DNA of 32,000 nucleotides from contig CAVYZN010000023.1 of assembly GCA_963773065.1 (NCBI GenBank), forward strand, positions 93,041 to 125,040, read 5' to 3'. Below the pieces are notes generated by a model. It was given only the letters and a program-made list of their open reading frames with translations, ran no database searches and had not been told where the DNA came from. Shown piece by piece: positions 4,703 to 24,263 of this stretch. The translations under genes and the position numbers were made by a program. Within the stretch, counting starts at the first letter, position 1. Every line of letters begins with the position of its first letter. This DNA is from an uncultured Gammaproteobacteria bacterium. Lineage in GTDB: Bacteria; Pseudomonadota; Gammaproteobacteria; UBA9214.

Positions 4703-5464
4703 TCAGCGGCGGACATTGCCGGCCCGGCCGATCGCCAGAAAATCCTGCGCATCCAGGGAGGCGCCGCCGATCAGACCGCCGTCGATATCCGCCATGGCGA
4801 GAAGCTCCGCGGCATTGCTGCCCTTGACGCTGCCGCCGTAGAGAATCCGGACCTTCGCCGCGACGGCCTTGTCCAGGCCGGCCAGCTTGCCGCGGATGAA
4901 GGCGTGTACATCCTGCGCCTGCTGCGGTGAGGCGGTCCTGCCGGTGCCGATTGCCCAGACCGGTTCGTAGGCGATCACGGCGGCGGCCAGCGCGCCGACG
5001 CCCTCGAGGGCGATGACGGCGTCCAGTTGACGGCCGACGACCTGCTCGGTGATGCCCTGCTCCCGTTCCTCCAGCAGCTCGCCCACGCACAGGATCGGCA
5101 CCAGTCCGGCCTTGCGCGCGGCGGCGAACTTGCGCGCCGTGAAGTCGTCGCTTTCGCCGTAGATGCTGCGCCGCTCGGAATGCCCCACGATGGCGTATTT
5201 GCAGCCGACATCGGTCAGCATGCCGGGCGCCACCTCGCCGGTATGAGCCCCGGATTCCCGGTCGTTGACGTCCTGGGCGCCGAGCGCGACCGAGGTCCCC
5301 TTTAGCATGGCGGCCACCTGCGGGAGGTAGACGTAGGGCGGGCAGACCGCCAGTTCCGCCGTGGTGACCATAGCCAGGCCGGCCTTGATCCCCTCGACCA
5401 GCTTTTTGATGCTGGCGAGCGATCCGTTCATCTTCCAGTTACCGGCGACCAGTGGCTGACGCAT
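4703..5464 (-). CDS. tpiA: Triose-phosphate isomerase.
   Basis: MRQPLVAGNWKMNG..., AIVGHSERR, AYEPVWAIGTG, ILYGGSV motifs. ATG at 5464 is preceded by GGAGG. The longer ORF start at 5521 is unlikely. Confidence 0.95.
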   Translation of the reverse strand: MRQPLVAGNWKMNGSLASIKKLVEGIKAGLAMVTTAELAVCPPYVYLPQVAAMLKGTSVALGAQDVNDRESGAHTGEVAPGMLTDVGCKYAIVGHSERRSIYGESDDFTARKFAAARKAGLVPILCVGELLEEREQGITEQVVGRQLDAVIALEGVGALAAAVIAYEPVWAIGTGRTASPQQAQDVHAFIRGKLAGLDKAVAAKVRILYGGSVKGSNAAELLAMADIDGGLIGGASLDAQDFLAIGRAGNVRR

Positions 5465-5760
5465 TTCGACCTCCCGTGAAAGCAGGCCGGGTAGCTTAGC
5501 GATCCGGGACCGGAAAATCAATTTGTCCGGTGAAATGCTTGTTTGCGCAGGAACCTTCGCTCATGAATGAGCAGACCCCTCAATTGCCTCAGGAACCGTG
5601 CGGCCCGGCGGACCTTTCCCCCCCGGCAAGGAAACGCGACCCAGGGTGAGACGCTCAGGCAACACCGTTTCGTGAAAAATTCACGTAGCCGGGAAAAAGC
5701 CCGGTTATTGACTATGATTACGGTACAAAACCCAATGGACCCCGGTAAAGGAGGATCGCT

Positions 5761-6129
5761 ATGGCCAGGAAAGCGCTTTGCATCGGCATCAACAACTACC
5801 CCGGTACTCACATGGATCTGCAGGGCTGCGTCAACGACGCCCAGGATTGGGCCGCGGTTTTGCAGGCACGCGGCTACACGGTCACCACTCTGCTCGACAA
5901 ACACGCCACCAAGGCCGCGATGGTACAGGCGATGTCGGACCTGATCGGCGCGGCGGGCAACGGCGCTTTCACCTACTACGCACTGAAAACGCTCAAGGCG
6001 CTGAAGCCGGACGCCAGTTATGCGGACTGGAACAAGGCCATCGGCGCTTATCTGCCGTCCGCCAGTTACCCGCAGAGTCCGCAACTCGTGGGCAACAAGA
6101 CGGCGCGCGGGCAGAAGGTTTTTGGCTGA
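5761..6129 (+). CDS. Caspase-family (peptidase C14-like) mini-protein lacking the catalytic His/Cys core.
   Basis: 122 aa with a strong SD (AAGGAGGA, 6-nt spacer). The N-terminus KALCIGINNYPG...LQGCVNDAQDWAAVLQARGY matches the first strand/helix of metacaspase-type domains. The C-terminus NGAFTYYALKTLK...YADWNKAIGAYL...YPQSPQL matches the end of the fold. The SGHG and D.C.SG segments expected in between are absent. Confidence 0.6.
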   Translation: MARKALCIGINNYPGTHMDLQGCVNDAQDWAAVLQARGYTVTTLLDKHATKAAMVQAMSDLIGAAGNGAFTYYALKTLKALKPDASYADWNKAIGAYLPSASYPQSPQLVGNKTARGQKVFG

Positions 6130-6196
6130 CCAGTATCCAAGTAAGAAGTGAGAAGTAAAAAAGTAAGGTCCGGAGCCACCGCCCCGGCACCCGACC

Positions 6197-6424
6197 ATGA
6201 ACATCTTAGCCATCACACTTTGGCAGATGAATGAGAACCTCCCCGCTTTGAAACTGATGCGGGCTGCTGCCGAGGGCCGCACGCGCGTGCTGGGGTCGAA
6301 TCATCCCGATGCGGTCAACTCGCGGCAGATGTTTGCGCAGATGTCGGCAGCATTAAGTGGTAAACGAATAGGCTTTGTAGACAGGAAAAGAATCATCAGA
6401 GGGAACTTGCAAAGCACCAGGTAA
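6197..6424 (+). pseudogene. Fragment of a TPR (TPR_10/12-like) repeat protein.
   Basis: 75-aa ORF. ..LAITLWQMNENLPALKLMRAAAEGRTRVLGSNHPDAVNSRQMFAQM resembles the ..A..L.e.al..r.rvLG.eHPdT..s..nLA repeat. It is isolated by stop codons upstream and has no convincing SD. Confidence 0.4.
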
Positions 6425-6501: not shown

Positions 6502-9500
6502 ATGACCAGGACCTATAAGATACGCGGCACCGAACAACACGCGAGGACCGTTCCTCCCACCAGTCAGGACATCGCCATCACCAATCCGCGCCGGCTGGTC
6601 GCCCGGCTCCGCCCGCGAGGCCGGGGTGGGCGAGATCGAGGCGGCGGGCGACGAGGTGGTGCGGGTGGAACTGGAAAACGGCTTCGTGCTGTGGACCCGG
6701 GCCGACGACCTGATCCGGGAGCGGGGCCGGAAGGCGACGAGCCGCGACGGGGGCGAGGGTTGGGAGATCGAAAGCCGGCCAAAATTGCGGGGCATGCAGT
6801 CCGGCCAGCGGGGCTGGCTGGGGCTCGGTATCAAGGTGCTGGAGTTCTTCGGCGTGGACCTGACGGGCAAGACGGCCGGGGTACTGGGCGACAAGCTGGA
6901 GGAGAAACTGTTGAAGGGCAATTTCCCGGGTCTCTACCGCTGCGCCCTGGGGGATGCTTTTACCCTCACGGTTGTGCCCGACGGTGAGGAACTGCCAACT
7001 GGCAAGGAGCCGTTGCTGGTATTTATACACGGTACCGCTTCCAGCACCCAGGGCAGCTTCGGCAAGCTTTGGGAAGGAGGCGGCAGCGCCGGCGCCGCGG
7101 CGCGCAAGACACTCAAGGATCGCTACGGCGACCGGGTGTATGCCTGGGAGCACCGCTCCCTCACCGTCAGTCCCATCCAGAATGCCCTGGAGTTGGTGCG
7201 ACGCCTTCCCGCCAACGCCGTGGTCCATTTGGTGACTCATTCCCGGGGCGGGCTGGTGGGGGAACTGCTTTGTCTCGCCGAGCGGGACAAGTCCAAGGAC
7301 CCGTTCCAGTCGGATCTCCTGCAAAACCTGTTCGCCGCCGATCGCACCATCGCCGAGCAGATCGGCCTGAGCCCGCTGGATGAGGGCGCCGCCAAGACGC
7401 GCGACGATGCTTACGGCGAGGACCGGGAGCGGCTGAAAAAGCTGCTGGAATTGCTGGACGAAAAGCAGATTAAAATCCGACGCTTCGTGCGCGTGGCCTG
7501 TCCGGCCCGGGGCACCACCCTGGCCTCGGGCCGCCTGGACCGCTGGCTGTCGGTCATCAACCACCTCACCGGCAACAGCCTGGTGGGCGATGCCGCCGAC
7601 TTCCTGCTGGCGGTGGTGAAGGAGCGCACCGACCCGCGCACCCTGCCGGGGCTGGAGGCCATGATGCCCGGCTCGGCCCTCACCCGGATGCTACAGCACC
7701 CCGCCCTCACCACCGGCGCCGATCTGACGGTGATCGCCGGCGACGTCGAGGGCGACAACCTGTGGAGCCAGATCAAGCTGCTGGCCACCGACTGGTTCTA
7801 CGGCGCCGACCACGATCTGGTAGTGAACACCGGTTCCATGTATGGCGGCATCCGCCGACCGGAAAAGGGCGCCCGCTTCCTGCGGGACCAGGGTCCCAGC
7901 GTCAACCACTTCAGCTATTTCGAGAACGACAAGAGCGTGCGCTGGCTGATGGCGGGACTCACCCGGGCCGACGGAACCGACGGCGGCTTCCAGCCCATCG
8001 AAGCAGCGAAACACGAAGAACCCCGCTGGCGCGAGGCGGTGCGCCGCAGCCGTGCCGCGACCGCGCCGCGGCCCCTGGCCGTGGTGCTGCCGGGCACTCT
8101 GGGCAGCGCCCTGAAGGTGCAGGGCGAAAATGTGTGGCTCGACTACTGGTCCCTGTTGTGGGGCGGGCTCAAGCGGCTAAGCATGGATGCGACGGGGGTC
8201 GAGCCCACCGACCTGCTGGACGATTTTTACGGCCCCCTGCTGGAGTTCCTGGCACGCAGCCACCGCGTGGAGATCTTCCCCTACGATTGGCGGCTTTCGG
8301 TGGTCGATGCGGCGAAAAAACTGGCGGACCGCTTGGAAGTCTGGCTGCCGGCAGCCGAGCGCACTGACCAGTCCGTACACCTGGTGGCCCATTCCATGGG
8401 CGGGCTGGTGGTGCGCGCCATGATCGCGGACACGCAACGTGGAGCAGCGCTGTGGCGGCGCATCGTTGCCCTGCCCAACAGCCGATTCCTGATGCTGGGC
8501 ACGCCGAACCTGGGTTCCTACGAAGCGGTGCGCTGGCTGACCGGCGGCAACCCAACCCAGGCCAAGATCAGCCTGCTGGATATCACCCAGAGCACCAACG
8601 AGATCATCGATTTGGTGCGCAACTATCCGGGCCTGGTGGAACTGCTGCCCTTCGACCCCGACAGCCCCGACTTCAGCCAGCAGGGCCTCTGGAAGAAACT
8701 CAGGGACGCCTTGAACGCCTCATGGCAACCGGCCGAGGAAGCGGTGCTGCGCCAGGCGCTCGCTACCTGGACTCTCTTGAAACAGTCCGCCCCGGATCCC
8801 GAGCACATGATTTACGTGGCCGGCTGTCAGGATGCCACGGTGGCGGATTACCACCTGGCCGACTACGAACAACCCTCTCTCGCTGGACGTAAACGCCTCG
8901 AGTTCATCGGCGACCGGCAGGGCGACGGAACGGTGACCTGGAAGTCCGGCCGCCTGCCCGGCGTACCCGTCTGGTATGTGGAAGACACGGCCCATGACGA
9001 GCTGTGCAAGCAGAAACGCGCCCTGCCCGGCTACCTGGATCTGCTCATGACCGGCAAGACCACGCGCCTGCCCGGCACCCCGCCGGCCGGGGCGAGAGCG
9101 GCGGCGGGCGAGCCGGATCGCTTCCCCATGCCGGCCCTGCCGCACACCGACGACATCCCGGATGAGCGCAGCGTGCGCAGCTTCAGCTTCGGTCCCGGGC
9201 GGCCCTTAGAGACCGATGACGACCGGCCGGTGGTGCCGGTCATCCAGGTCGGCATCTGTCACGGCGACCTGGCCTACGCCCATCATCCGGTGCTGGTGGG
9301 GCATTACCTGGGTGACACCGTCATCAGCGCCGAGTCCGCCCTGGACCACCGGCTTGGCGGGGCGCTGACACGGCGCCTGCAGCTCGGGCTCTACCCGGGG
9401 CAGACGGGAACCCATGCCCTGTTCTTCAATGAAAAGACGGACGGCAAACCCGGGGGCGCGGTCGTGATCGGGCTGGGCCAGGTGGGCGAACTCTCTCCCG

Positions 9501-12022
9501 GTCTGCTCGAGGCCGGCGTGCGCAACGCGCTGATGGACTACGCCCTGCAGGTGGCTCAATGGCCGGACGAACGCTTCGGTCCGGCCAAGGGCGTGCGATC
9601 GGCCGCCGTATCCTGTCTGCTGGTGGGCTCCGGCCCGGGCGGCATGGCGGTGCGTGATTCCGTCGATGCCATCCTCCGGGGCGCGGTGGCGGCCAATGAC
9701 CGGCTGGAGCAGGCTGATCTGAATGACCGGGTGCTCATCGACCGCGTCGAGTTTCTGGAGCTGTTCGAGGACGTGGCCCTCGCCGCGGCCGATGCAATGG
9801 ATTCGATCTTGAAGGACGGGAAACTGGCCAATGCCATCGCCTGGCCGGCGAAAGTCATCGAGGAAGGACAGGGCCGGCTCCGCCGGGTACGCTGCGACGA
9901 TACACCGGGCTGGTGGCACCGGCTGGAGATCATCGAGGAGAAAGGCCGGGGCGGCCTGCGCTTCATCGCCTCCACCGATCGCGCCCGGGCCGAGGTCACC
10001 CAGGCCACCGGCCAGCTTCGATTGGCGGACAGCTTTATCCACCAGGCCTCCCAGTCTCCCGCCAGCAATGCCGAAGTGGCCAAGACCCTGTTCGAGATGC
10101 TCCTGCCCAACCGGCTGAAGGAATTGGCCCCCAGACAGACGGACCTGGTGCTGCTGGTGGACGCAGCCTCGGCGCGCTACCCCTGGGAATTGCTGGAAGA
10201 CCGCTGGAGCCAGACCGGCCGGCCGGCCGCTGTTTCCGCCGGCCTGGTGCGCCAGCTCAAGACGCCCCGGTTCCGTCCCCATCCGGCCCATGCCACCGAG
10301 GCCACCGCCTTCGTCGTGGGCAATCCGGATCTGGGCGGCTGGGATTCCTTCCCCGACCTGCCCGGCGCAAGGCAGGAGGCGCAAAACGTCGCCAGCCGGC
10401 TTATGGCCGGAGGTTATCGGGTGAGGGACTGCATTGATGAAAAGGCCGACGTCATCCTGGAAGTTCTGCACAAGGACGCCTGGCGCATCCTGCACCTGGC
10501 GGGCCACGGCGAGCACGAGATGGTGCTGGAGGAGGAAGATGAAGCCCGAGAGGTGTGCGCGGACGATGAGCGGCCCGTTCCGAAACGCAAGCAGTGCCTC
10601 TCGGGCATGGTCATCGGCAGCAAGACTTTCCTCACCCCGGGCGATGTGGAGCAGATGCGCTGGGTGCCGGAGCTGGTGTTCATCAACTGCTGCCACCTGG
10701 GCAAGACCGGCGCCTCCCGACACGGCAAATACAGCCTGCTGGCGGCGAACCTGGGAGTGCAGTTCATCAACATGGGAGTCAAGGCAGTGGTGGCCGCCGG
10801 CTGGGCGGTGGACGACGGGGCGGCGAGCGCCTTCGCGGAGAGTTTCTACGCCCACCTGCTGGACGGCGAGCTTTTCGGCAAGGCGGTGCGTGCCGCCCGG
10901 GAGGAGATCTGGACCCGCTTCCCCAACGTCAACACCTGGGGCGCCTACCAGTGCTACGGGGATCCCGGCTACCGGCTTCGCGGCGACGGCGCTGCCCCAC
11001 CGCCTCCCAGCGGCAAGCGCTACCACTCCCCGGCCGAATTGATCGCCGATCTGGAAAACCACACCCAAGTGATCCGCGTGAAGATCAAGAACAAGGAGAA
11101 GGACGGGGACGAGGATGCCCTCGCCAAGATGCGCGCCGGCATCGTCGGCCTGTTCGGTGCCATACCGGAAGAGCGGCAGGCGAAATGGCTCGCCCGCGCC
11201 GACGTGGCGGCGGCAGTGGGCTTCGCCTGGGGCGAGACCGGCGCCTGGGCCGAGGCCGTGGAATGGCTGGAGAAGGCACTGCATGCCAAGGAGGGCGATT
11301 GCCCGGTGCGGGCGGTGGAACAGTGCGCCAACTTCAGGGTACGGCTGTCCGCGCAGAAGTGGCAGCAGATGCGTGATGCGGTTGATCGCAAACAGGCCGA
11401 GGCAGGTCGCTCTGCGCTGATCCGGGAAATCGAACTCGCCATCCGGGAACTGGACTACCTCAACCAGCGGGCGCCGACCCAGGAACGATTGGACCTGCTG
11501 GGCGGCGCCTGCAAGCGGCTGGCCTGGGTTCACACCGAAGAGGCGCCGCGCCTCGAAGCTCTGGTCAACATGGCCAACTACTATCGCCAAGCCTTCGATC
11601 ATGACGACAAAGCCAGATCCCTATCCCTTCACCAACTGGGCCATCGCCAAGGTGTTCGCCAATCGGTTCGATCCCACCCAGGATGGCGAGTGGCGGATCA
11701 CTCTGGAAGACGAATGCCGGCGCATGATCGACGTGGCCCGGAGCCGCAACGCCGAGAAACCCAATTTCTGGGACGGGGCGGCCGAGGCCGACTGCGAACT
11801 GGTGATGTTGCTATGCTGGCAAATCGCGACACCACGACGAAGGCAGCCAACGAAGCCGTGACCCGCATTGCCGAACTTTACCGAGCCGCGGCACGGCGCG
11901 GCGCCAGTCCCAGGGAATACGCCTCGGTGCTGGAGCACCTGGACTTCGTCATCGAGGTGGGCGGCTTCACGGCCGGCTCTCCATTGAACGAAGCTCTGCG
12001 CGCCATCCGCGATGCGCTCTGA
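6502..12022 (+). CDS. Giant multidomain protein (about 1840 aa): alpha/beta hydrolase 1 + LCAT/PGAP1-like lipase + middle (possibly macro-like) region + CHAT caspase-fold protease + helical/TPR-like tail. The continuous ORF as read is 6626..12022.
   Basis: ORF track, 1798 aa. Hydrolase 1: LLVFIHGTASS, VTHSRGG (Ser 7241..7243), DHDLVVNTGSM. Lipase 2: PYDWRLS (8279..), VAHSMGG (Ser 8393..8395), GDGTV (Asp 8924..8926), DTAHDEL. CHAT: PDLPGARQEAQ, ILHLAGHGEH (His 10505..10507), LVFINCCHLG (Cys 10688..10693), AVVAAGWAVDD..A..F...FY, TWGAYQCYGDPGY. The likely true start is ATG 6502 (AAGGAG 9 nt upstream, MTRTYKIRG...), joined by a frameshift within about 6575..6625. A compensating frameshift pair at about 11605..11615 and 11805..11820 puts about 70 codons out of frame; the real reading is ..DDKPDPYPFTNWAIAKVFANRFDPTQDGEWRITLEDECRRMIDVARSRNAEKPNFWDGAAEADCELVMLL.. 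from ORF 11601..11861. Confidence 0.85.
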
Positions 12023-12047
12023 GCCGCCAGGAACCAAGGAGACCGCC

Positions 12048-12605
12048 ATGGCCAACCGTTCGAAAACCCGGCTGGAAAACCTCAGTCTCGAAGACCTCGA
12101 CCCGCAGGATCTCATCGCCGCGAACTTCCGTGTCTATGAACTCACCCGTTCCGAACTCGCCAGCCGGCTGGGCATAGACAACACCTTCCCGAGCGACCGG
12201 GAACTGCGCGCCGCCGTGTACCTGGCCCGCAAGGTGCTGCAGGTGATTCGCGATACCTTCGGCCCCTATACCCCAAACAGCGTGTTCCGCAGCCAAGCCC
12301 TGGAGCGCGCGCTGAAGAAAAAGCCCGGCGGGTGGATCAGCACCAGCCAGCACACCCAGGGCTGCGCCTGTGACGTGGAGATCGTCGGCAAGACCACCCT
12401 GGAACTGGCTCAATGGGCGGCGGACAACCTGCCCGACTACGACCAGATCATCTGCGAGTGCTTCGACCCGAGCGAAGGCCCCAACTCCGGTTGGGTGCAT
12501 ATCTCCCTCAAGCCCCCCGAATTGGGGGTAAACCGCAGGACCCTCTTGAGCTACATCCGTGATCCCGAAAATGGAACTCATCGCCGCGAACTTCCGTGTC
12601 TATGA
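12048..12605 (+). CDS. Peptidase M15 family zinc metallopeptidase (D-Ala-D-Ala carboxypeptidase / endolysin-like), copy 1.
   Basis: ATG 12048 has AAGGAGA 6 nt upstream and lies 26 nt after the stop of the giant gene. Motifs: F.V.EL..S..A.RLGIDN.P, VFRS, H-x6-D (SQHTQGCACD, 12351..12374), GWVHIS. No signal peptide. The C-terminus is replaced by out-of-frame readthrough into copy 2. Confidence 0.8.
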   Translation: MANRSKTRLENLSLEDLDPQDLIAANFRVYELTRSELASRLGIDNTFPSDRELRAAVYLARKVLQVIRDTFGPYTPNSVFRSQALERALKKKPGGWISTSQHTQGCACDVEIVGKTTLELAQWAADNLPDYDQIICECFDPSEGPNSGWVHISLKPPELGVNRRTLLSYIRDPENGTHRRELPCL

Positions 12606-13042
12606 ACTCACCCGCTCCGAACTCGCCAGCCGGCTGGGCATAGACAATTCCTTTCCCAGCGAGCGGGAGCTGCGCGCCGCCGTGTACCTGGCGCGCAAGG
12701 TGCTGCAGGTGATTCGCAAGGAATTCGGTTCCTTCTCACCCAACAGCGTGTTCCGCAGCCAGGCTCTGGAACGCGCGCTGAAGAAAAAGCCCGCCGGCTG
12801 GATCAGCACCAGCCAACACACCCAGGGCTGTGCCTGCGACCTGGAACTCGTCGGCAAGACCACCCTGGAACTGGCCCAGTGGGCGGCGGACAACCTGCCC
12901 GACTACGACCAGATCATCTGCGAGTGCTTCGACCCGAGAGAAGGTCCCAACTCCGGTTGGGTGCACATCTCCTTCAAGCCCCCCGAATTGGGGGTAAACC
13001 GCAGGACCCTCCTGAGCTACATCCGTGATCCCGGAAGCGAAC
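12111..13042. repeat. Direct tandem duplication, 2 x 466 bp (12111..12576 and 12577..13042), covering most of the M15 peptidase gene.
   Basis: ctcatcgccgcgaacttccgtgtctatgaactcacccg starts at both 12111 and 12577. The copies align end to end with scattered substitutions; most positions are identical by eye. Confidence 0.9.
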
Positions 13043-13083
13043 AGATGGTTTATGTCGAGGGGTTGCGGGAAAGCGTGGCGTGA
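12571..13083 (+). CDS. Peptidase M15 family zinc metallopeptidase, copy 2 (tandem paralogue).
   Basis: Same motifs as copy 1 (His at 12817..12819). Start is ATG 12571, or GTG 12559 as in the ORF track. It has the full-length C-terminus ..SYIRDPGSEQMVYVEGLRESVA. Confidence 0.8.
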   Translation: MELIAANFRVYELTRSELASRLGIDNSFPSERELRAAVYLARKVLQVIRKEFGSFSPNSVFRSQALERALKKKPAGWISTSQHTQGCACDLELVGKTTLELAQWAADNLPDYDQIICECFDPREGPNSGWVHISFKPPELGVNRRTLLSYIRDPGSEQMVYVEGLRESVA

Positions 13084-13518: not shown

Positions 13519-13754
13519 TCCCGTTCAGCGGCATGCGCCATGGCGGCGTGTGCCACAGTTGAAGTAACCGGTGACAGAACGTCTGAAAAAAATTCAAGAC
13601 CCTGCGCTCCTGCCTCCTGCATGCGGTGAAATTTATACCCGGCCTTCAACGGAAGCGATTGGGCGAAATCCTGACTGCTCCATCGAATACCGGGGTTTCT
13701 TTCGCCAGCCCGGTTATCTGCGATATGCTCCTTTCTCTTGAGAACACGGGCCAC

Positions 13755-16464
13755 ATGACCACCATCTACCTCTCTTCGTCCTACGAAGACCTGAAGGACT
13801 ACCGCCGGGTCGTGTTCGAGGCCCTGCGACGGTCCGGGTATAACGTCATCGCGATGGAGGAGTACGTCGCCCGTGACGACCGCCCCGTGTACGCCTGCCT
13901 TCAGGACGTCGATCACGCCGACATCTATGTGGGGCTGTTTGCCTTCCGCTATGGCTACATCCCGCCCGCCGCACACGGCAATCCCAACGGCCTGTCCATC
14001 ACCGAACTGGAGTTCCGGCGCGCCGATCGCTGCGCCTGCCAAGAAATGCCTGACGTTTCTGCTCGATGAAAAGACCCCCTGGTCGAGCCTATACAACGAC
14101 GCCTATACACGTGAGAACGAACGCGGTGAGCGAATCAAGAAGTTGAGGGATTACCTGCGGCAGGAAAAGATGGCAAGCTTCTTCAGCACACCCCACGAAC
14201 TGGCCAGCCTGGTGCAAGCCGCCGTCAGCCAACATCTCCAGTCCGGCCGGGAAGAATCCCCGGCGTCCGAAACCCGTTCCGAACCGATCACCTGGCACGT
14301 CGCCAAAGACGACTCGCCCTATCCGGGGCTCATGCACTTCACGCGACAGTTCGCCCGGGTGTTCTTCGGCCGCGAGGGGGAGGCGCGGGAACTGCTCGAC
14401 CGGATGACCCTGCCCGATGGCCGCTTCCTCATCGTGAGCGGCGACTCCGGCACCGGCAAGTCCTCGCTGGTGGATGCGGGCGTGTTACCCCGGCTGGAGG
14501 AATCCGGACTCCCCGGATACCCGACACTCACTACGGTACGCCTGGTCCCGGGCGAAGGAGAGAACCCCTTCGACGCCCTGCTCCGGGTCCTTAGCCCTTA
14601 CGCACAACGGGCGGGTTTGAACTCGTATCTGCTTGGCACCGAGGAGCTGGTCGCCCACCCCGAGAATTTGCCGGCAACGCTTGCGACGATCGTCGCGCGT
14701 GGCATGGACACAAAGGCCTTGGTGCTGTTTGTCGACCAGATGGAAGAGCTGTTCACGGTCAAGGAAGAGGAAAAAGCGCTGGCGGCCGCCTTTCTCTCGG
14801 GGCTTTACCAGGCCATCCAGACAAGCGCCTTGTGGGTCATCGCCACCATCCGCACCGACCTGCTGCACCACTGCTACAACCACCCGGACCTGCTCAAGGT
14901 CCTGCGCGGTCCGGGGCATTATCCGCTCGGTCCGATGGCGCTCCACCGGTTGCATGAGATCATCGTGCGGCCCGCTCGCTGCGCCGGCCTGGCAGTTCCC
15001 GGTCCTCTGGCGGGACGTCTGATCAAGGACGTCGGCACGGAAGCGGGCAATCTGCCGTTGCTGGCCTTCGTGCTGCGGCGGTTGTTCGACAGACGCCAGG
15101 ATAATGTGCTCAGTGAAGCAGTCTACGATGACCTCGGCGTCCTCAATGGCGCCATCGCCGATCACGCTGCTTCGGTGCAACGCGAACTCGCCGCCACCCT
15201 TGGACAAGAAGTCCTGGAACGGCGTCTTGCCGAAATCTTCGAGGCTCTGGTCCACGCGGATGTGGAGGGCCTGCCCACCCGGCGCAGCGTCCCTTCGCAG
15301 GAGTTTTCCGACCACATGCATACCGTCATCGATGCCCTGGTGAAGGGACAGCTTCTGACCGTGCAGGGTGGGCGCGATAAGGGCACCGTCACCGTGGCTC
15401 ACGAACGCCTGTTCAATGCCTGGCCGGCGCTTGCCCATTGGGTCGCCGAACTCCAGGACGAGCTGCGCCTGCTGCGCCAGGGTGAACTCGATGCCGCGGA
15501 GTGGCAGCGTCATAACGCAGACCTCGGCTATCTTTGGCACACCGACCGCCTGATGCGCTTGCAGACGGTGGTAAGCGGCCTGGCAGCCAACCGGGCAAGC
15601 CGGCAGCTACGCGACTTCGCCTGGCCGCAACAACGTCTGGTGAACCGCCTGAACGAACCGGAACTTACCCATGAGGTACGCCAGAGCATCGGCCGCTACC
15701 TGGCCGAGCAGGGCGATCCACGGCCGGGGACCGGTGTGACCGCCGACGGTATCCCGGACATCGACTGGGTAGACATACCCGACGGTCGCGTGGTGTTGGA
15801 GAAAAATGTCGGCGCGGGCATGGTCGAACCTTTCCGCATGGCGCGTTATCCCATCACCAATGCCCAGTTCGAAGCCTTCGTGTCCGCCGCAGATGGTTAT
15901 CGTAACCGGGAATGGTGGACAGGATCGCCGGAGGCCGCCAGCGATGGCCTGGAAACGCCGCGCTGGCCCGAACCCAACCATCCGCGCGTGTCTGTATCCT
16001 GGTACAAGGCGGCGGCCTTTTGCCGCTGGCTGTCCCGGCGGCTCGGCTTCGAGGTCTGGCTGCCCACCGAATTCGAGTGGCAGCAGGCGGCCACCGGCGG
16101 TGACCCGACCAACGTCTATCCCTGGGGCCCCGAATGGGATGCGCGCTACTGCAACAGTACGAAGAGCAGGCTGAACCGAACCACGGCGGTGGGCATGTAT
16201 CCCGCGGGCGCCAGCCACCAGGGCGTGCTGGATCTGGCCGGCAACGTGTGGGAATGGTGCAAGAATAAATACGACAATCCCGATGACCCAAAGGCGTTGC
16301 GCGTCGATGATTCCGGAGATTCGCGCGTGTTGCGCGGCGGGTCCTGGGCCGGCGGTCCGGTCGACCTGCGTTGCGCCGACCGCTTCAGGTTCTTTCCCGA
16401 CGACCGCTTCGTCGACATCGGGTTTCGTGTGGTGTGCCGCCCCCGCTCTTCCACGGGACGCTGA
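13755..16464 (+). CDS. DUF4062-like (TIR-like Rossmann) N-terminal domain + STAND-type P-loop ATPase (nSTAND-like) + C-terminal FGE-sulfatase-fold domain. One frameshift near 14020..14030.
   Basis: ORFs 13626..14069 and 13873..16464 join as ..GLSITELEFRRA / IAAPAKKCLTFLLDEKTPW... The N-terminus MTTIYLSSSYEDLKDYRRVVFEAL..GYNVIAME.......CLQDVDHADIYVGLFAFRYGYIP fits DUF4062. Walker A is GDSGTGKSSLVDAGVLPRL (14440..), Walker B is LVLFVDQMEELF (14719..14748). FGE fold: FRMARYPITNAQFEAF, LPTEFEWQQAA, LAGNVWEWC, RVLRGGSW, DIGFRVV. Confidence 0.85.
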
Positions 16465-16652: not shown

Positions 16653-16681
16653 ACCGTATACTCCCTCCGGGCGCCGCGTGA
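16565..16681 (+). pseudogene. Truncated RyR-domain gene copy. The 38-aa ORF has a stop that overlaps the start of the TIR gene.
   Basis: MNTYEPHPIDTSGIRLPEDLLELTEELARN matches the first 30 residues of the 18073..18360 product, then diverges and stops. TGA 16679..16681 overlaps ATG 16681..16683. Confidence 0.5.
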
Positions 16682-17937
16682 TGTCCGCTGAAACAGCCTC
16701 CACGAAGAACGACAGCCGGCACGTTTTCATCAGCTTCGCATCGGCGGATCTCGAACTGGCCAATCGGATCGTCGAAAGGCTGGAGCGCGGCGGGATCCGC
16801 TGCTGGATCGCGCACAGGGACATCGAACCCGCCGCGAGCTATCCAGCCGCCATCACGGCCGCCATGACTTCAAGCGCAGCCGTCCTGCTGCTCCTGACTG
16901 AATCGTCCAACAGTTCGCCTCATGTGCTGCGCGAAATCGAGATGGCGTTCAACGCCCGCACACCCATCCTGCCGGTGTGCATGGCGGGCCTCACGCCTTC
17001 GGCCGATTTGCAGTATTTCCTTTCGACGACGCAATGGTTCGATGCCGGCGCGACCTTCGACGAGGGTGACGCAAAACGGCTGCAGGACCGTCTGAAAGAA
17101 CTGCTCGCAGGCGGCACGGTTCACCGCGGCAGACGGGATATTCCAGGCCGATTCGGACGACGGGCCTTCATCGCGGGAGTGCTGGCGCTGTCGGCCGTGG
17201 CTGTTATCGTCTTATCCTTCGTCGTTCCATGGGGATTTCATCCGTCGCGGGAGTCCATCCAAACGAAAGTCAGCTCGCGGGACGGCCAGACGTACGTGTG
17301 GGTCCAAGCCGGTGATTACGTGATGGGATGCTCGTCAGGAGATCCTGCATGCGAAGAAGATGAGAAGCCTGCGCATAGGGTCCGCATCAAACAGGGCTTC
17401 TGGCTTGCCCGCACGGAGGTAACGGAGGCGCAGTACCGTAAGCATGCACCGGCAGGGAGCGGTGATCGCCAGGAGGCGGACGCCAATATGCCGGCAACAG
17501 AGATTACCTGGGCGGATGCGAATGTCTATTGCACGGCGATCGGTGGCCGGCTGCCAACGGAAGCCGAGTGGGAATACGCGGCACGCGCGGGCACCACGAC
17601 CCGCTACTACGGCGCGCTCGGGTCTATCGCGTGGTACGAGGACAACAGTAACCAACGCGCGCATCCTGTGGGGCAGAAGCAGCCCAATGCGTTCGGCCTC
17701 TACGACATGCTGGGCAACGTGGCGGAGTGGGTTCGAGACCGCTATTACAACTCGTACGACGATAGCGGCGATGAAGTCGCGATCGAGGAGCCGCTGGCAC
17801 CGAACGCCTCGGCTATCGCGCGCGGCGGTTCATGGTTCTCGGATGCGCGCGGTGTCCGAGTATCGCGGCGGCTCGATATGATCCCGGAGGCGGCAGAGGC
17901 GATAATCGGCTTTCGTTGCGCATACGACAAGCTATGA
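16681..17937 (+). CDS. TIR domain + single transmembrane helix + FGE-sulfatase-fold domain protein.
   Basis: ORF track, 419 aa (GTG 16678 / ATG 16681). TIR_2-like: HVFISFASADLELA..I...LE..GIRCWIAHRDI, AVLLLLTESSNSSPHVLREIEMA (Glu 16933..16935). TM helix AFIAGVLALSAVAVIVLSFVVPW (17164..17232), preceded by the Arg-rich HRGRRDIPGRFGRR. FGE fold: HRVRIKQGFWLARTEVTEAQY, LPTEAEWEYAARAG, LGNVAEWV, ARGGSW, IIGFRCA. Confidence 0.85.
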   Translation: MSAETASTKNDSRHVFISFASADLELANRIVERLERGGIRCWIAHRDIEPAASYPAAITAAMTSSAAVLLLLTESSNSSPHVLREIEMAFNARTPILPVCMAGLTPSADLQYFLSTTQWFDAGATFDEGDAKRLQDRLKELLAGGTVHRGRRDIPGRFGRRAFIAGVLALSAVAVIVLSFVVPWGFHPSRESIQTKVSSRDGQTYVWVQAGDYVMGCSSGDPACEEDEKPAHRVRIKQGFWLARTEVTEAQYRKHAPAGSGDRQEADANMPATEITWADANVYCTAIGGRLPTEAEWEYAARAGTTTRYYGALGSIAWYEDNSNQRAHPVGQKQPNAFGLYDMLGNVAEWVRDRYYNSYDDSGDEVAIEEPLAPNASAIARGGSWFSDARGVRVSRRLDMIPEAAEAIIGFRCAYDKL

Positions 17938-18414: not shown

Positions 18415-19635
18415 TCAATCCTCGATGTCCCTGGCAAGACGAAAACCAATGTAGCTGTACCCGGCACCGGGGGAGTCCCTGAGCCGGGACGCGGAACGCA
18501 GGCCCACCGCCAGGAGGTACCAGGAACCACCGCGCACCACGCGCTGGCCGCAATCTCCGCCGCCGCCCTCCAACCAGGCGGAACCGTCATCGGGCGCGCC
18601 ATCGTAGTTATCATGCACGCAGTCCTGCACCCACTCCCACACATTGCCCGCCGTGTCGTAAAGACCAAACGCGTTCGCCTCGAATGACCCTACCGGCGCC
18701 GTGTACTTCCCTTCGGCCTTGCCCTGCCACTCACTCTCACAATCCTCGCAGTTGGCCATCCCCGGCTTCATCTCCTCACCCCACCAGTACCGCGTCGAAG
18801 TCCCCGCCCGCGCGGCATACTCCCACTCGGCTTCGGTCGGGAGCCGATACGGCTTACCCGTCTGTTGCGACAGCCATTCGGCATAGGCTACCGCATCAAC
18901 CCAGGAGACATTGATCACCGGCCGACGGTCACGACCCCAGCCACCATCGGCCGGCAGCGCATGCCCCGTTGAGGCCGCAAACTGGTCGTATTCCTCGAAG
19001 GTCACTTCGTATCGCCCAATCGCAAACGGCCTGGTGAAAGTAACCCGGTGCTGGGGACGCTCATCCGGATCCCGGCCATATTCATCGCCTGGCGAACCCA
19101 TCATGAAAGAACCCGGCGGAATTTCCACCATCTCGGGACCCTTCGAACCATCAAGCAATGTGTCGCGAATCACAGCCGGCAATGACACGTTGGCTACGTT
19201 TACGTTTTCGCTTGGTTCTTTGCTGATTTCAGTCGGCCGATGGGGTTGACCGACAATCTCGGCGATATCCTTCCTCAGGTTCCGATAAGAATCCTGGTTA
19301 ACGGTGCCATCCCAATCGAACAATTCAAGCGTTTGCAACTCTTCGAACCGAAAGGGAAGATCGACCGCCTCAATCTTGACCGGAACCAGTTTATTGTGAT
19401 TCAGAGCGTAATACGCCTCGTCCTTCACATAAGTCGACTGGACCGAACGTTGCGACCACAGGACGATGACGCAGCGGGATGCCTTCATTGCCTGCTCGAT
19501 CACATCATCGAAGTGTTCGCCCGCGTGGAGCTTCGGGTCCCACCAGACACTCCAGCCCTCGCGTTCCAGCGCATCCGCCAGGCATCTGGCGACGTGCTGT
19601 TCCTCCCGTTTGTAGCTGATAAAAATATCCGTCAT
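18415..19635 (-). CDS. TIR domain + FGE-sulfatase-fold domain protein (soluble, no TM helix).
   Basis: ORF track, 406 aa. TIR_2-like: DIFISYKREEQHVARCLADALEREGWSVWWD, CVIVLWSQRSVQSTYVKDEAYYA (Glu 19417..19419). FGE fold: HRVTFTRPFAIGRYEVTFEEY, INVSWVDAVAYAEWL, YRLPTEAEWEYAARAG, AGNVWEWVQD, VVRGGSW, YIGFRLA. Confidence 0.85.
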   Translation of the reverse strand: MTDIFISYKREEQHVARCLADALEREGWSVWWDPKLHAGEHFDDVIEQAMKASRCVIVLWSQRSVQSTYVKDEAYYALNHNKLVPVKIEAVDLPFRFEELQTLELFDWDGTVNQDSYRNLRKDIAEIVGQPHRPTEISKEPSENVNVANVSLPAVIRDTLLDGSKGPEMVEIPPGSFMMGSPGDEYGRDPDERPQHRVTFTRPFAIGRYEVTFEEYDQFAASTGHALPADGGWGRDRRPVINVSWVDAVAYAEWLSQQTGKPYRLPTEAEWEYAARAGTSTRYWWGEEMKPGMANCEDCESEWQGKAEGKYTAPVGSFEANAFGLYDTAGNVWEWVQDCVHDNYDGAPDDGSAWLEGGGGDCGQRVVRGGSWYLLAVGLRSASRLRDSPGAGYSYIGFRLARDIED

Positions 19636-19712: not shown

Positions 19713-19772
19713 CCGCGCCGTCCGTGACAGGTCTATTAGGCGGCCCCATCCGTGCGGTCGGCAATGGCGGCT

Positions 19773-21107
19773 TCAGACGGCCGCGGCCACGGCCGTGGCC
19801 AGATGACCGGCCTCTTCGCGCACCGTCTGTTCGTCCTCGCCTTCGACCATGACCCGCACCACGGGTTCGGTCCCGGACGCGCGCAACAGGACACGGCCCC
19901 TGCCGCTGAGCCGCCGCTCCGCCGACCGGACCGCCTCCTGCACGCCCGGCGCGGCCTCCAAGTTCATGCTCTTACCGACCGGTACGTTGATCATGTACTG
20001 CGGATATTTCTTCATGCCGGCCTTCAACTCGTGCAGCGGCTTGCCGCCCATGATCATGGTGGCGAGCACCTGCAGCGCGGCGACGATGCCGTCGCCGGTG
20101 GTGGTGCGGTCCAGGCAGATGATGTGGCCGGAGGATTCCCCGCCCAGCATGCCGCCGGTCTGCTGCAGCCGCTCCAGCACGTAGCGGTCGCCGACCCGGG
20201 CGCGCTCGAAGGCGATGCCGTGCGCCTGCAGGGCATGCTCCAGTCCGAGGTTGCTCATCAGGGTGCCGACGACGCTGCCGTTCAGCTTGCCCTGCTCCCG
20301 GCGCGAGCGCGCGATGATGAACAACAGCTCATCGCCGTCCACCAGTTCGCCGCGGCTGTCGACCATGATGACGCGGTCGCCGTCGCCATCGAGGGCAACC
20401 CCGGCATCGGCGGCGTGTTCCCGCACCGTTTTCTGCAACTGCTCGGGCTGGGTGGAACCGCAGTCGAGGTTGATGTTGAGGCCGTCGGGATGCGTGCCGA
20501 CCTTGATCACCTCCGCGCCCAGTTCGTCGAAGATGCTGGGCGCGACGCCGTAGGTGGCGCCGTTCGCGCAGTCGACGACGATCTTCAGGCCCCGCAGCGA
20601 CAGGCTCATCGGCACCGTGCTCTTGCAGAACTCGATATAGCGCCCGGGGGCATCGGGCACGCGTTCCGCCTTGCCGAGCCGGGCGGAGTCCACGGTGACC
20701 ATGGGCTTCTCCAGCTCGTCCTCGATGGCGAGTTCGATCTCGTCCGGCAGCTTGGTGCCCTGGCGCGAGAAGAACTTGATGCCGTTGTCGAAGTAGGGAT
20801 TGTGCGAGGCGCTGATGACGATCCCGGCGCAGGCATGCAGGGTGCGCGTGAGATAGGCGATGCCGGGGGTGGGCATGGGACCCAGCAGGCGGATGTCGAT
20901 ACCGGCGGCGGAAAGACCCGCCTCCAGCGCCGATTCGAACATGTAGCCGGAAATGCGCGTGTCCTTGCCGATGATGACCAGGTCGCCGCCGGCAAGCCCC
21001 AGCACGCGGCCGGTTGCCCAGCCCAGTTTCAGCATGAACTCGGCCGTTACCGGGTATTCCCCCACCCGACCGCGGATGCCGTCGGTACCGAAATATTTTT
21101 TCGCCAT
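19773..21107 (-). CDS. glmM: Phosphoglucosamine mutase.
   Basis: 444 aa. [13 protein letters not shown]..., the active-site serine loop [21 protein letters not shown], and GGESSGH. Confidence 0.95.
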
Positions 21108-21148
21108 GCTGGCTCCTCAATGATGCCGCATCAGTCCAGATCGGAATT

Positions 21149-21234
21149 ATTCACCGCAAAGACGCAAAGTTCGCGAAGACTTATTAACAAAAATCATTAA
21201 ACAGCTTTGCGTTCTTTGCGTCTTTGCGGTGAAT
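21149..21234. repeat. REP-like palindrome: 21-bp perfect inverted repeat attcaccgcaaagacgcaaag (21149..21169) / ctttgcgtctttgcggtgaat (21214..21234).
   Basis: The arms are exact reverse complements separated by an AT-rich 44-nt loop, in the folP-glmM intergenic region. Confidence 0.8.
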
Positions 21235-21369: not shown

Positions 21370-22224
21370 TTAGCCGGCATCCCTGACCGCCTGACACAGC
21401 CGGATCGCCTCGCGAGTCTCGCGGACATCGTGGCAGCGCACGATCGCGGCGCCCTGCCAGACCGCCAGCACCGCCAGGGCAACGCTGGGAGTTAACCGCT
21501 GATCGACGGGAAGGCCCAGCACCTGGCCGATCAGCGACTTGCGTGACAGACCGACCAGCACGGGGTAGCCGTGCGCGACCAGGCGGTCGAGATGGCGCAG
21601 CAGCCGCAGGTTGTGCTCAACCGTCTTGCCGAATCCGAAGCCCGGGTCCAGCAGTATCCGGTGGCGCGGCACCCCGGCCGTGACACAGGCGCGCACGCGC
21701 TCCAGCAGAAAGCCGGCGACTTCGGCAACCACGTCCGCGTAGCGCGGCGCCTCCTGCATGGTTTGCGGCTCGCCCCGCATGTGCATCAGGCATACCGGCA
21801 CGCCCAGATCCGCCGCCGCCGCGGCGGCGCCTTCCGCCCGCAGGGCATTGACGTCATTGATCAGGCCGGCGCCCGCCGCCACCGCGGCGCGCATCACCTC
21901 CGGTTTCCGGGTATCGACCGATATGGGCACCGGCAGGGATCGATGCAGGGATTCGATGACCGGCAGGACGCGCCGCAGTTCCTCATCCAGCGGGACCGGC
22001 GGGGCCCCCGGACGGGTGGACTCGCCGCCGACATCGATGATCGCCGCGCCCTCATCGACCATGCGATGCGCCCGCTCGACGGCCCTCGCGGTGGATAAGA
22101 AATCACCCCCGTCCGAAAAGGAATCGGGGGTGACATTCAGGATGCCCATGATCTGCGGATGCGAGAGGTCCACCGGCTTGCCCGCGCAGTCGAGCCAAAT
22201 GGGGTCAGCGCCATCTCCCGCCAA
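21370..22224 (-). CDS. folP: Dihydropteroate synthase.
   Basis: 284 aa. SHPQIMGILNVTPDSFSDGG, IIDVGGESTRPG and GFGFGKT motifs. The start codon as read is TTG at 22224; the exact start is uncertain. Confidence 0.9.
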   Translation of the reverse strand: MAGDGADPIWLDCAGKPVDLSHPQIMGILNVTPDSFSDGGDFLSTARAVERAHRMVDEGAAIIDVGGESTRPGAPPVPLDEELRRVLPVIESLHRSLPVPISVDTRKPEVMRAAVAAGAGLINDVNALRAEGAAAAAADLGVPVCLMHMRGEPQTMQEAPRYADVVAEVAGFLLERVRACVTAGVPRHRILLDPGFGFGKTVEHNLRLLRHLDRLVAHGYPVLVGLSRKSLIGQVLGLPVDQRLTPSVALAVLAVWQGAAIVRCHDVRETREAIRLCQAVRDAG

Positions 22225-22242
22225 GGGTATTCACCACCCGGT

Positions 22243-24180
<1,938 letters not shown>

Positions 24181-24263
24181 ACCGGATACCTCATCTTGTC
24201 AGTGGAGCGACTGCCTGCGTATTTCCACAATCAATGGACGGGTTAAAAAGTGCATCAACTACA

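Follow-up and report, generated by a model that had tools for sequence, protein, structure and literature searches.

In type III-B CRISPR-Cas systems, the protease SAVED-CHAT has been shown to be activated by the cyclic oligoadenylate cA3 and to process PCaspase (10.1101/2023.06.23.546230; summarised in 10.1101/2024.10.24.620036). In Thoeris systems the signal is derived from NAD: a Macro domain reads His-ADP-ribose (His-ADPR) in type II, and N7-cyclic ADP-ribose (N7-cADPR) activates a caspase-like protease in type IV. Moreover, STAND-FGS and TIR-FGS have been described as self-contained sensor-effector systems in which the FGE domain is regarded as a lectin-like sensor of invaders (Kaur et al., 2021; PMC8195603). 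We report here on a gene that touches on all of these systems, located in a 32,000-nt stretch of DNA (hereafter the window) from an uncultured Gammaproteobacteria bacterium (GenBank assembly GCA_963773065.1, contig CAVYZN010000023.1, positions 93,041 to 125,040). This gene encodes a giant protein carrying two lipase-type hydrolases and a CHAT caspase-like protease, and a preliminary description, made by eye from the DNA letters, had tentatively proposed that the segment between the second lipase and CHAT (9230-9800) is a macro-like, ADP-ribose-binding domain wired, as in Thoeris, to the neighbouring TIR genes. As detailed below, the fold assignment is solid, the connection to Thoeris is weak and the window copy of the gene is damaged. 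Reading of NAD-derived signals is known for only a small number of protein modules, the macro fold among them, and a strongly conserved, unannotated macro-fold domain joined to a caspase-like protease offers a concrete regulatory handle for the whole protein family.

Read in frame 1, window positions 9230-9800 correspond to residues 869-1058 of an open reading frame (ORF) of 1798 codons (6626-12022, + strand), in which all the peptides quoted in the preliminary description were found. When residues 866-1150 (285 residues) were modelled by AlphaFold2 with a 66-sequence alignment, the model reached a mean predicted local distance difference test score (pLDDT) of 88.5 and a predicted template modelling score of 0.83, with 10-residue block means of 94-98 over model residues 11-220 (about residues 875-1085 of the giant protein), except for one block at 85; from the single sequence, the same region gave a pLDDT of 34. 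In this model the domain extends from residue ~873 to residue ~1064 (9242-9817), its 3' end lying slightly beyond the interval first proposed. The structure comparison that had been suggested for this segment, carried out with Foldseek against the PDB, returned 185 matches at E<=1e-3 with a best probability of 1.00, and the top matches are macrodomains and leucine-aminopeptidase N-domains. Indeed, almost all of the 50 best of these 185 matches are macrodomains, macroH2A-carrier fusions or M17 aminopeptidases, the first one being macroH2A1.1 (1zr3_C; E 4.3e-7, target-normalised template modelling (TM) score 0.70). The best macrodomain matches range from E 4e-7 to 1e-5 with target-normalised TM scores of 0.6-0.74 over ~190 columns, and include TTHA0132 (2dx6; TM score 0.74 normalised to the target), whereas further matches comprise macro 2 of PARP9 with ADP-ribose (9qyf), YmdB, PARP14, MacroD2 and the aminopeptidases 8pz0 and 7y1s. 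Window positions 9242-9817 thus encode a genuine domain of the macro fold, the three-layer alpha/beta/alpha fold being recognised here by structure comparison.

At the sequence level, the domain appears nearest to the aminopeptidase-N-domain branch of this fold and not to the classical ADP-ribose-binding macrodomains. The window segment matches Peptidase_M17_N (PF02789) with 14.5-14.7 bits (E 0.03), under the gathering cut-off of 23.4, and the alignment covers the first half only (segment residues 23-97 against profile positions 2-75). The same family is matched by 32 of 37 members of the giant-protein family (E<=1, best 5.4e-6), and a profile built from these 37 sequences matches, through its positions 19-99, residues 18-97 in the N-domain of the Xanthomonas aminopeptidase 3jru (E 0.0049). 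The leucine aminopeptidase N-terminal domain (Peptidase_M17_N) is one that we take to have the macro fold and to belong to the Pfam MACRO clan, a kinship of fold reportedly pointed out by Allen et al. in 2003 with the structure of Af1521. On the macrodomain side, the 37-sequence profile gave a weak match to TTHA0132 (E 0.12), in which 'sLLiGTGaGGlsV' is aligned with 'pLLGTGVGGLPV'. Pfam Macro (PF01661) matched neither the window segment, even at E<=10, nor any of the 37 members, and when the family profile was compared by hhalign with one of YmdB-type macrodomains, the match was not significant (probability 0.3%, E 0.18) and in a wrong register, a weak negative given the low diversity (>=68% identity) of the YmdB alignment. 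Searched alone against the PDB with phmmer, the segment had only spurious vimentin matches. Of note, the Peptidase_M17 catalytic domain has no Pfam match in the giant protein, where CHAT (PF12770) follows instead. As Foldseek and the sequence profiles agree, the fold call is confirmed, and the by-eye assignment is borne out by the AlphaFold2 model, the structural matches and the family profile matches alike.

Regarding the residues that the family has kept, the alignments show H879-G880, G892-H-Y894, D897, E903, D907, Y923-P-G925, G949-L-G951, G954, G1001 and E1045 to be invariant or nearly so. The motifs of the domain, in order, read H-G-[DN]-L, V-G-H-Y-x-G-D, S-A-E, Y-P-G, V-G-L-G-x-V-G, L-L-[IV]-G-[TS]-G-x-G and E-F-x-E-L-[YF]-E-D, an order that is co-linear with that of classical macrodomains. 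When conservation is read together with the AlphaFold2 secondary structure, the conserved polar and glycine residues cluster at strand ends and in the loops that follow them, and in the model this conserved crest is predicted to be the face that forms the ligand cleft in macrodomains. Individual positions were mapped onto macrodomains from the succession of the motifs and the secondary structure prediction, without superposition, and in this mapping residue 881, the equivalent of the Asp that contacts adenine N6, is D in 62, N in 45, S in 9 and H in 9 of 125 sequences. Loop 1 reads 'G-H-Y-x-G-D' where hydrolytic or binding macrodomains have 'N-x6-GGG-x-D', the GGG being absent, and loop 2, at the place of the 'G-x-x-G' diphosphate loop, is conserved as 'G-[TS]-G-[AG]-G', to which 'GTGVGG' corresponds in the alignment with TTHA0132. 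The sequence evidence for ADP-ribose binding by the domain is therefore mixed, and we know of no small-molecule ligand for the aminopeptidase-N-domain branch.

The domain belongs to a large family. Searching residues 866-1075 with phmmer against 1.84 billion cluster representatives (clusters at 50% identity) gave 1435 domain matches with E<=1e-3, of which 1176 had E<=1e-10 and 249 had E<=1e-30, and most of the 150 matches listed among the 1435 are 1750-1900 residues long with the domain at residues ~870-1100. In a census of 156 retrieved proteins, the arrangement hydrolase, lipase, macro, CHAT and TPR-S is dominant; variants lacking lipase 2 (~1450 residues) or both hydrolases (~900 residues) keep macro-CHAT-TPR-S. 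All of the 145 proteins that reach past the domain have lipase 2 and/or CHAT flanking it, and among the 156 none was found in which the domain is joined to anything besides CHAT. The macro-fold domain is hence a fixed N-terminal partner of CHAT in a large family of ~1800-residue proteins, hosted by Proteobacteria, Geobacter, Acidobacteriota, Nitrospirales and others. A word-indexed protein search returned only 13 short frameshifted family fragments, although hundreds of full-length relatives exist.

Along the giant ORF (6626-12022, +), the domain order is DUF7379 alpha/beta-hydrolase, LCAT-like lipase, macro-like domain, CHAT and TPR-S, all on the + strand. Lipase 1, a DUF7379 alpha/beta-hydrolase with a 'THSRGG' nucleophile elbow, occupies 7016-8035 (PF24096, E 1.5e-32, from residue 131), and lipase 2, which is LCAT/PGAP1/DUF676-like and carries 'AHSMGG', lies at 8063-9115 (PF02450, E 1.1e-9, residues ~548-646). 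The macro-fold domain of the aminopeptidase-N-domain-like branch (residues ~873-1064, 9242-9817, called from the AlphaFold2 model, Foldseek, profiles and conservation) is followed by a conserved pre-CHAT region or beta-rich linker (residues ~1065-1149, 9818-10072; AlphaFold2 pLDDT 54-76) in which W1096, W1097, R1099 and R1119-A-R-x-E1123 are nearly invariant in the family alignments. Next come the CHAT protease (residues 1150-1446, 10073-10963; PF12770, E 2.3e-28) and TPR-S, C-terminal repeats predicted to act as a sensor (11246-12019; PF20308, E 1e-9, residues 1541-1660). In CHAT, the motifs of both catalytic residues, 'LHLAGHG' for His and 'FINCCHLG' for Cys, are intact in the window and nearly invariant across the family, and on this sequence basis CHAT is apparently active. 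No Pfam family scored above threshold over residues ~860-1150, Pfam, NCBIfam and PADLOC have no model that covers the macro-fold domain or names the giant protein, and the CHAT region had no phmmer match in the PDB. The giant gene had no megablast match among plasmids, and a literature search returned nothing on DUF7379, PF20308 or a macro-CHAT fusion. Similarity to orthologues of the giant protein begins at 6518, before the first ATG, GTG or TTG of the ORF (6626), and the native start of the gene may be lost or unusual.

When 185,579 species genomes were scanned with an alignment of macro plus CHAT, at least 591 loci were recovered, and gene neighbours were counted in the best 80 of these (41-72% identity, flanks of up to 10 kb) by phmmer and hmmsearch on six-frame ORFs, with a check against Pfam. 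The related loci, designated here by L numbers, include those of Thauera phenolivorans ZV1C (L013), Azotobacter chroococcum DSM 2286 (L014), Denitromonas (L015, L016) and Rhodoferax antarcticus (L034). A C14 caspase of ~280 residues lies directly upstream of the giant gene and on the same strand in 35 of the 80 loci; an M15_3-like peptidase lies directly downstream, sometimes overlapping the end of the giant gene, in 25; and in 17 the M15 gene is followed by a protein of ~520 residues that belongs to no Pfam family. The operon proper to the family consists of a C14 caspase, the giant protein and an M15-like peptidase, sometimes then followed by the 520-residue protein. Neither the giant protein nor the M15-like or the 520-residue protein has an NCBIfam match. 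Examples of the 520-residue protein, which is not present in the window, are found at L032:12793-14370, L072:13563-15131 and L026:13462-15042, and its C-terminal motif 'SDVVLMDLRNF..GCLHEL' repeatedly matched profiles of TIR and of nucleoside deoxyribosyltransferases, though never significantly. A TIR-like domain in this protein was considered and is kept as a lead only, none of the scores being significant (hhalign <1%; TIR hidden Markov model (HMM) E 0.06-2; Nuc_deoxyrib_tr E 0.039 in one member).

In the window, the giant gene sits in a 14-kb island (~5.6-19.7 kb) inserted between tpiA (4703-5521, -) and glmM (19773-21107, -), past which come folP, ftsH (22243-24180, -), rlmE, carB, carA and dapB. 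Both usual partners are present in damaged form. Upstream, a C14 caspase remnant (5761-6135, +; Peptidase_C14, E 9.8e-12) keeps only the equivalents of residues 1-72 and 218-280, and the 254-residue ORF at 5518-6282 (-) was set aside as its shadow. Downstream, the M15_3-like peptidase (12012-13083, +), the usual downstream partner in the family, is represented by two incomplete tandem copies that overlap and lie in different frames (12015-12575, residues 3-189, and 12574-13080, residues 34-202), with a 300-nt direct repeat, 89% identical, at 12107-12406 and 12573-12872. Within TPR-S, comparison with the orthologue of locus L003 and three-frame translation place ~70 codons (~11615-11825) out of frame; the +1 frame at 11615-11825 reads 'KPDPYPFTNW...PNFWDGAAEADCELVMLL', that is, the family consensus ('...DPYPFTNW...PNFWD...'), so that two compensating indels would keep the ORF open and leave the protein garbled. 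Further downstream, DUF4062 (13626-14069, +; E 2e-22) is in another frame than the ORF to which it ought to be fused, that for an nSTAND1 NTPase with an FGE/FGS lectin-like domain (13873-16464, +; 7.1e-89 and 1.2e-43), a split that suggests a frameshift in this gene. Two TIR proteins with an FGE-sulfatase-like domain complete the island, one at 16678-17937 (+; TIR_2 2.4e-21, FGE 7.5e-46) and one at 18415-19635 (-; TIR_2 1.8e-23, FGE 2.4e-64). The former has, between TIR and FGE, a transmembrane-like hydrophobic stretch, FIAGVLALSAVAVIVLSFVVPWGF, that the latter is without, so its FGE domain may face the periplasm. Near-full-length domain or structure matches were obtained for tpiA, glmM, folP, ftsH, rlmE, carB, carA and dapB, and because these flanking housekeeping genes are in such a state, the island looks decayed, or at least far more error-laden than its surroundings. 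The ORFs at 19752-21200 and 22159-24246 (+), both with no Pfam match, were discarded as shadows of glmM and ftsH, respectively. Two adjacent Calx-beta-repeat ORFs (489 and 156 residues; 922-2858, -) at the window's left end are unrelated to the island.

TIR domains occur in the flanks of 16 of the 80 related loci, and among the 49 loci with 5 kb or more of DNA on each side, TIR is present in 10 and absent from 39. In total, 27 TIR domains were counted in 1.03 Mb of flanking DNA, and all 20 candidates scanned against Pfam are TIR_2. With a few TIR genes per genome, fewer than about one per Mb would be expected; TIR is clearly enriched near the family, yet it is facultative and heterogeneous. 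The TIR-positive loci are spread over the whole identity range and over distant lineages (43-70% identity), and L005, L011, L020, L042, L047 and L074 have a TIR gene that shares the strand of the giant gene and lies within ~2 kb of it. No TIR is present in the flanks of the relatives closest to the window protein (L001-L003 and L072, 71-72% identical). As for their architecture, TIR domains are fused to FGE, patatin, SIR2, WD40, CHASE2, PASTA, NB-ARC-TPR, NACHT-TPR, discoidin or C14, and some stand alone; a C14 caspase-TIR fusion is found near the giant gene at L070:2335-3600 (-), and a Geobacter locus (L039:1247-21193) has four TIR proteins, namely a TIR-PASTA, two TIR-NB-ARC, one of them with TPR, and a TIR-NACHT-TPR. 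When the 106 nearest of the other neighbours were classified with Pfam, TIR_2 (5) and TPR-S (5) were the only families outside housekeeping to recur, and none of the Macro, SLOG and nucleotide-cyclase families recurs among the 25 neighbour families listed. The five TPR-S neighbours are, from their coordinates, probably C-terminal pieces of split giant genes, and a family HMM found no other TPR-S protein in the flanks of the related loci. FGE-domain proteins lie near the giant gene in 5-7 of the 80 loci, depending on the FGE query, as in the Nitrospirales locus L074, where an nSTAND1-FGE and a TIR are both close to it. A TIR presence so facultative and heterogeneous is the pattern of NLR-like proteins that share conflict islands (as described in PMC8195603) and not that of a dedicated ThsB-ThsA pair.

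The wiring that the preliminary description had proposed therefore finds a partial echo only: the window does have two TIR_2-FGE genes in the island of the giant gene, 4.7 and 7.3 kb further downstream, but co-occurrence of TIR with the family is not conserved across loci. Within local flanks of ~7-10 kb, 64 of the 80 loci have no TIR gene, the closest relatives included, and the TIR architectures are heterogeneous, with at least 10 unrelated fusion modules. Relatives without TIR genes nearby, which the preliminary description had named as evidence against itself, are hence the rule, and in the absence of any Pfam Macro or PADLOC ThsA match, Thoeris-like wiring is not supported as a general property of the family. 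The neighbouring TIR genes are not regular partners of the giant protein, and together with DUF4062-nSTAND1-FGE they are best understood as a STAND/TIR-FGS conflict module that accreted separately.

By analogy with SAVED-CHAT, we tentatively favour, at a little short of an even chance, the reading in which the macro-fold domain is a regulatory module gating the CHAT protease, from the very position that SAVED occupies in SAVED-CHAT. The crest formed by H879-G, G892-H-Y-x-G-D897, E903, G949-L-G, G1001-[TS]-G-x-G and E1045 would bind a ligand or a partner, a small molecule containing phosphate being a plausible candidate, and the trigger would enter through TPR-S, the macro-like crest or both. 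Once active, CHAT could process the operonic C14 caspase and perhaps also the M15 protein or the hydrolase arms of the giant protein itself, and the lipases and the peptidoglycan peptidase would be set free to act; the outcome might be a joint attack on proteins, membrane lipids and the cell wall, i.e., a suicide of the abortive-infection type. Given this make-up of the operon, with its caspase and M15 peptidase, the most likely working model is a self-contained 'executioner' that acts in cell death or defence. Several observations weigh against a gating module of this kind. The nearest sequence relatives, the aminopeptidase N-domains, are non-ligand-binding as far as is known, and the domain occurs only with CHAT, whereas typical sensors are shuffled among effectors, which favours an integral structural role; in addition, the giant protein already has a predicted sensor in TPR-S. 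With respect to a self-contained operon, TIR is the top non-core neighbour domain, so that the adjoining TIR genes are perhaps not functionally independent, and no core partner is universal, the best being the C14 caspase with its 35 loci.

Among the other explanations, that of a purely structural or oligomerisation module, supporting assembly or positioning CHAT without any small molecule as the M17 N-domain would do, is rather unlikely but has to be taken seriously. It would account for the aminopeptidase N-domains being the sole significant sequence links, for the constant association with CHAT in the retrieved set, for the incompleteness of the classical ADP-ribose-binding motifs and for the presence of TPR-S as a sensor candidate. 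Nevertheless, H879, H893, Y894, D897, E903, D907, E1045 and G-[TS]-G-x-G, all invariant and on the predicted ligand face, are in excess of what a scaffold usually needs, and the second half of the domain resembles the phosphate loop of a classical macrodomain, unlike an aminopeptidase N-domain. The same fold and the same invariant His, Tyr, Asp and Glu, potentially catalytic or modification-binding, could also suit a reader or eraser of macromolecules that phage or toxin ADP-ribosyltransferases have ADP-ribosylated, or that are otherwise modified, the domain then triggering the protease or being itself a hydrolase. This we consider very improbable, as neither MacroD, PARG or ALC1-type motifs nor any similarity to YmdB-type hydrolases were found in the domain, and no ADP-ribosyltransferase recurs in the neighbourhood. 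Lastly, the window segment being below every Pfam threshold and the low pLDDT of the single-sequence model might suggest that the segment is no macrodomain at all and that a fortuitous run of motifs, a linker or CHAT's pseudo-caspase half has been mistaken for one. The high-confidence alignment-based model and the Foldseek matches refute this idea, to which we give practically no credit: the domain has 1435 homologous clusters, and since none of the 50 listed Foldseek matches is described as a caspase or a separase, the segment is not the pseudo-protease half of CHAT and this candidate was rejected.

In a Thoeris-like system, the TIR-FGE proteins would sense an invader through their FGE, lectin-like domains and make an NAD-derived messenger by which, once bound, the macro-like domain activates CHAT and/or the lipases, and there are arguments in its favour: the domain has a macro fold, type II Thoeris (His-ADPR and Macro) and type IV (N7-cADPR and a caspase-like protease) are precedents, and both window TIRs have a Glu at the catalytic position of TIR NADases ('REIE' and 'KDEA', placed by eye, unaligned). 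Moreover, TIR genes recur in distant lineages, six times on the same strand within ~2 kb, TIR_2 is the top non-core neighbour family with no other signal-making enzyme recurrent, and FGE proteins recur as well, including the nSTAND1-FGE and TIR of L074. With TIR as the most frequent non-core neighbour domain, a facultative TIR link is possible. We nonetheless judge a Thoeris-like system unlikely, given the 64 of 80 loci and 39 of 49 well-flanked loci that have no TIR, among them L001-L003 and L072, the varied TIR fusions that look like independent NLR-like effectors of conflict islands and not like a dedicated ThsB, the lack of sequence similarity to ADP-ribose-binding macrodomains or to PADLOC ThsA models, the variable equivalent of the adenine-contacting Asp and the absent GGG loop. 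A broader proposal, in which the domain would be the receptor of a nucleotide or NAD-derived messenger switching on the CHAT-caspase, the two lipases and the M15 peptidase, appears to us a shade more doubtful again; its messenger could be made by TIR proteins where these are present, or by the 520-residue partner with its faint motif resembling TIR or nucleoside deoxyribosyltransferases. If such a receptor exists, it would define a new and widespread signalling-dependent cell-suicide system, represented by at least 1400 clusters of proteins, and would give the macro superfamily a new branch that binds ligands.

Returning to the gating of CHAT by the macro-fold domain, the caspase and M15 partners point to a protease cascade in the manner of SAVED-CHAT, accompanied by activities that degrade membrane and wall. 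Should the domain bind a small molecule, ligand sensing would extend to the aminopeptidase-N-domain branch, which is now regarded as non-ligand-binding.

Compared with the systems described so far, the locus combines features of several of them. Type IV Thoeris likewise has TIR genes and a caspase-superfamily protease in one island and sets a precedent for an NAD-derived signal acting on a protease; unlike it, the giant family has no TIR in 80% of its related loci. The segment 13626-19635 of the window, with its nSTAND1-FGE and two TIR-FGE proteins, corresponds to the STAND-FGS and TIR-FGS systems, whose description does not include a giant lipase-macro-CHAT-TPR-S protein (Kaur et al., 2021; PMC8195603). 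Among the window ORFs scanned against Pfam, there is no diversity-generating retroelement. With SAVED-CHAT of type III-B CRISPR-Cas, the giant protein shares a non-catalytic alpha/beta domain placed directly before CHAT and a co-encoded caspase (35 of 80 loci), and the PADLOC SAVED_CHAT model gives a weak match (E 0.0018) to the CHAT part only (residues 1287-1433). It differs in having a macro fold and not SAVED, no CRISPR or cyclase genes nearby, two lipase-type hydrolases and a TPR-S tail; caspase cleavage is, in the giant family, what we infer, and the window keeps only a caspase remnant. The classical macrodomains (PF01661) are the best structural matches and have co-linear motifs, the G-D/N-L turn and the G-x-G-x-G loop in common with the domain, from which they are set apart by the lack of a Pfam or PADLOC match, by its loop 1 'G-H-Y-x-G-D' and by the variable Asp position. 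The M17 aminopeptidase N-domain (PF02789; 3jru, 8pz0 and 7y1s) is also a macro fold N-terminal to a peptidase domain, shows the same order of 'h-h-V-G-h-[FY]', 'L-D...G-x-L', 'G-x-x-G' and 'h-h-V-G-L-G' and is the sole family with a sequence-level signal; however, the window segment matches it under threshold and over its first half only, is followed by CHAT and has a G-[TS]-G-x-G loop as in classical macrodomains. A macro-superfamily module as the fixed partner of CHAT, in a large uncharacterised family of multi-hydrolase proteins, is thus a known fold in a new combination.

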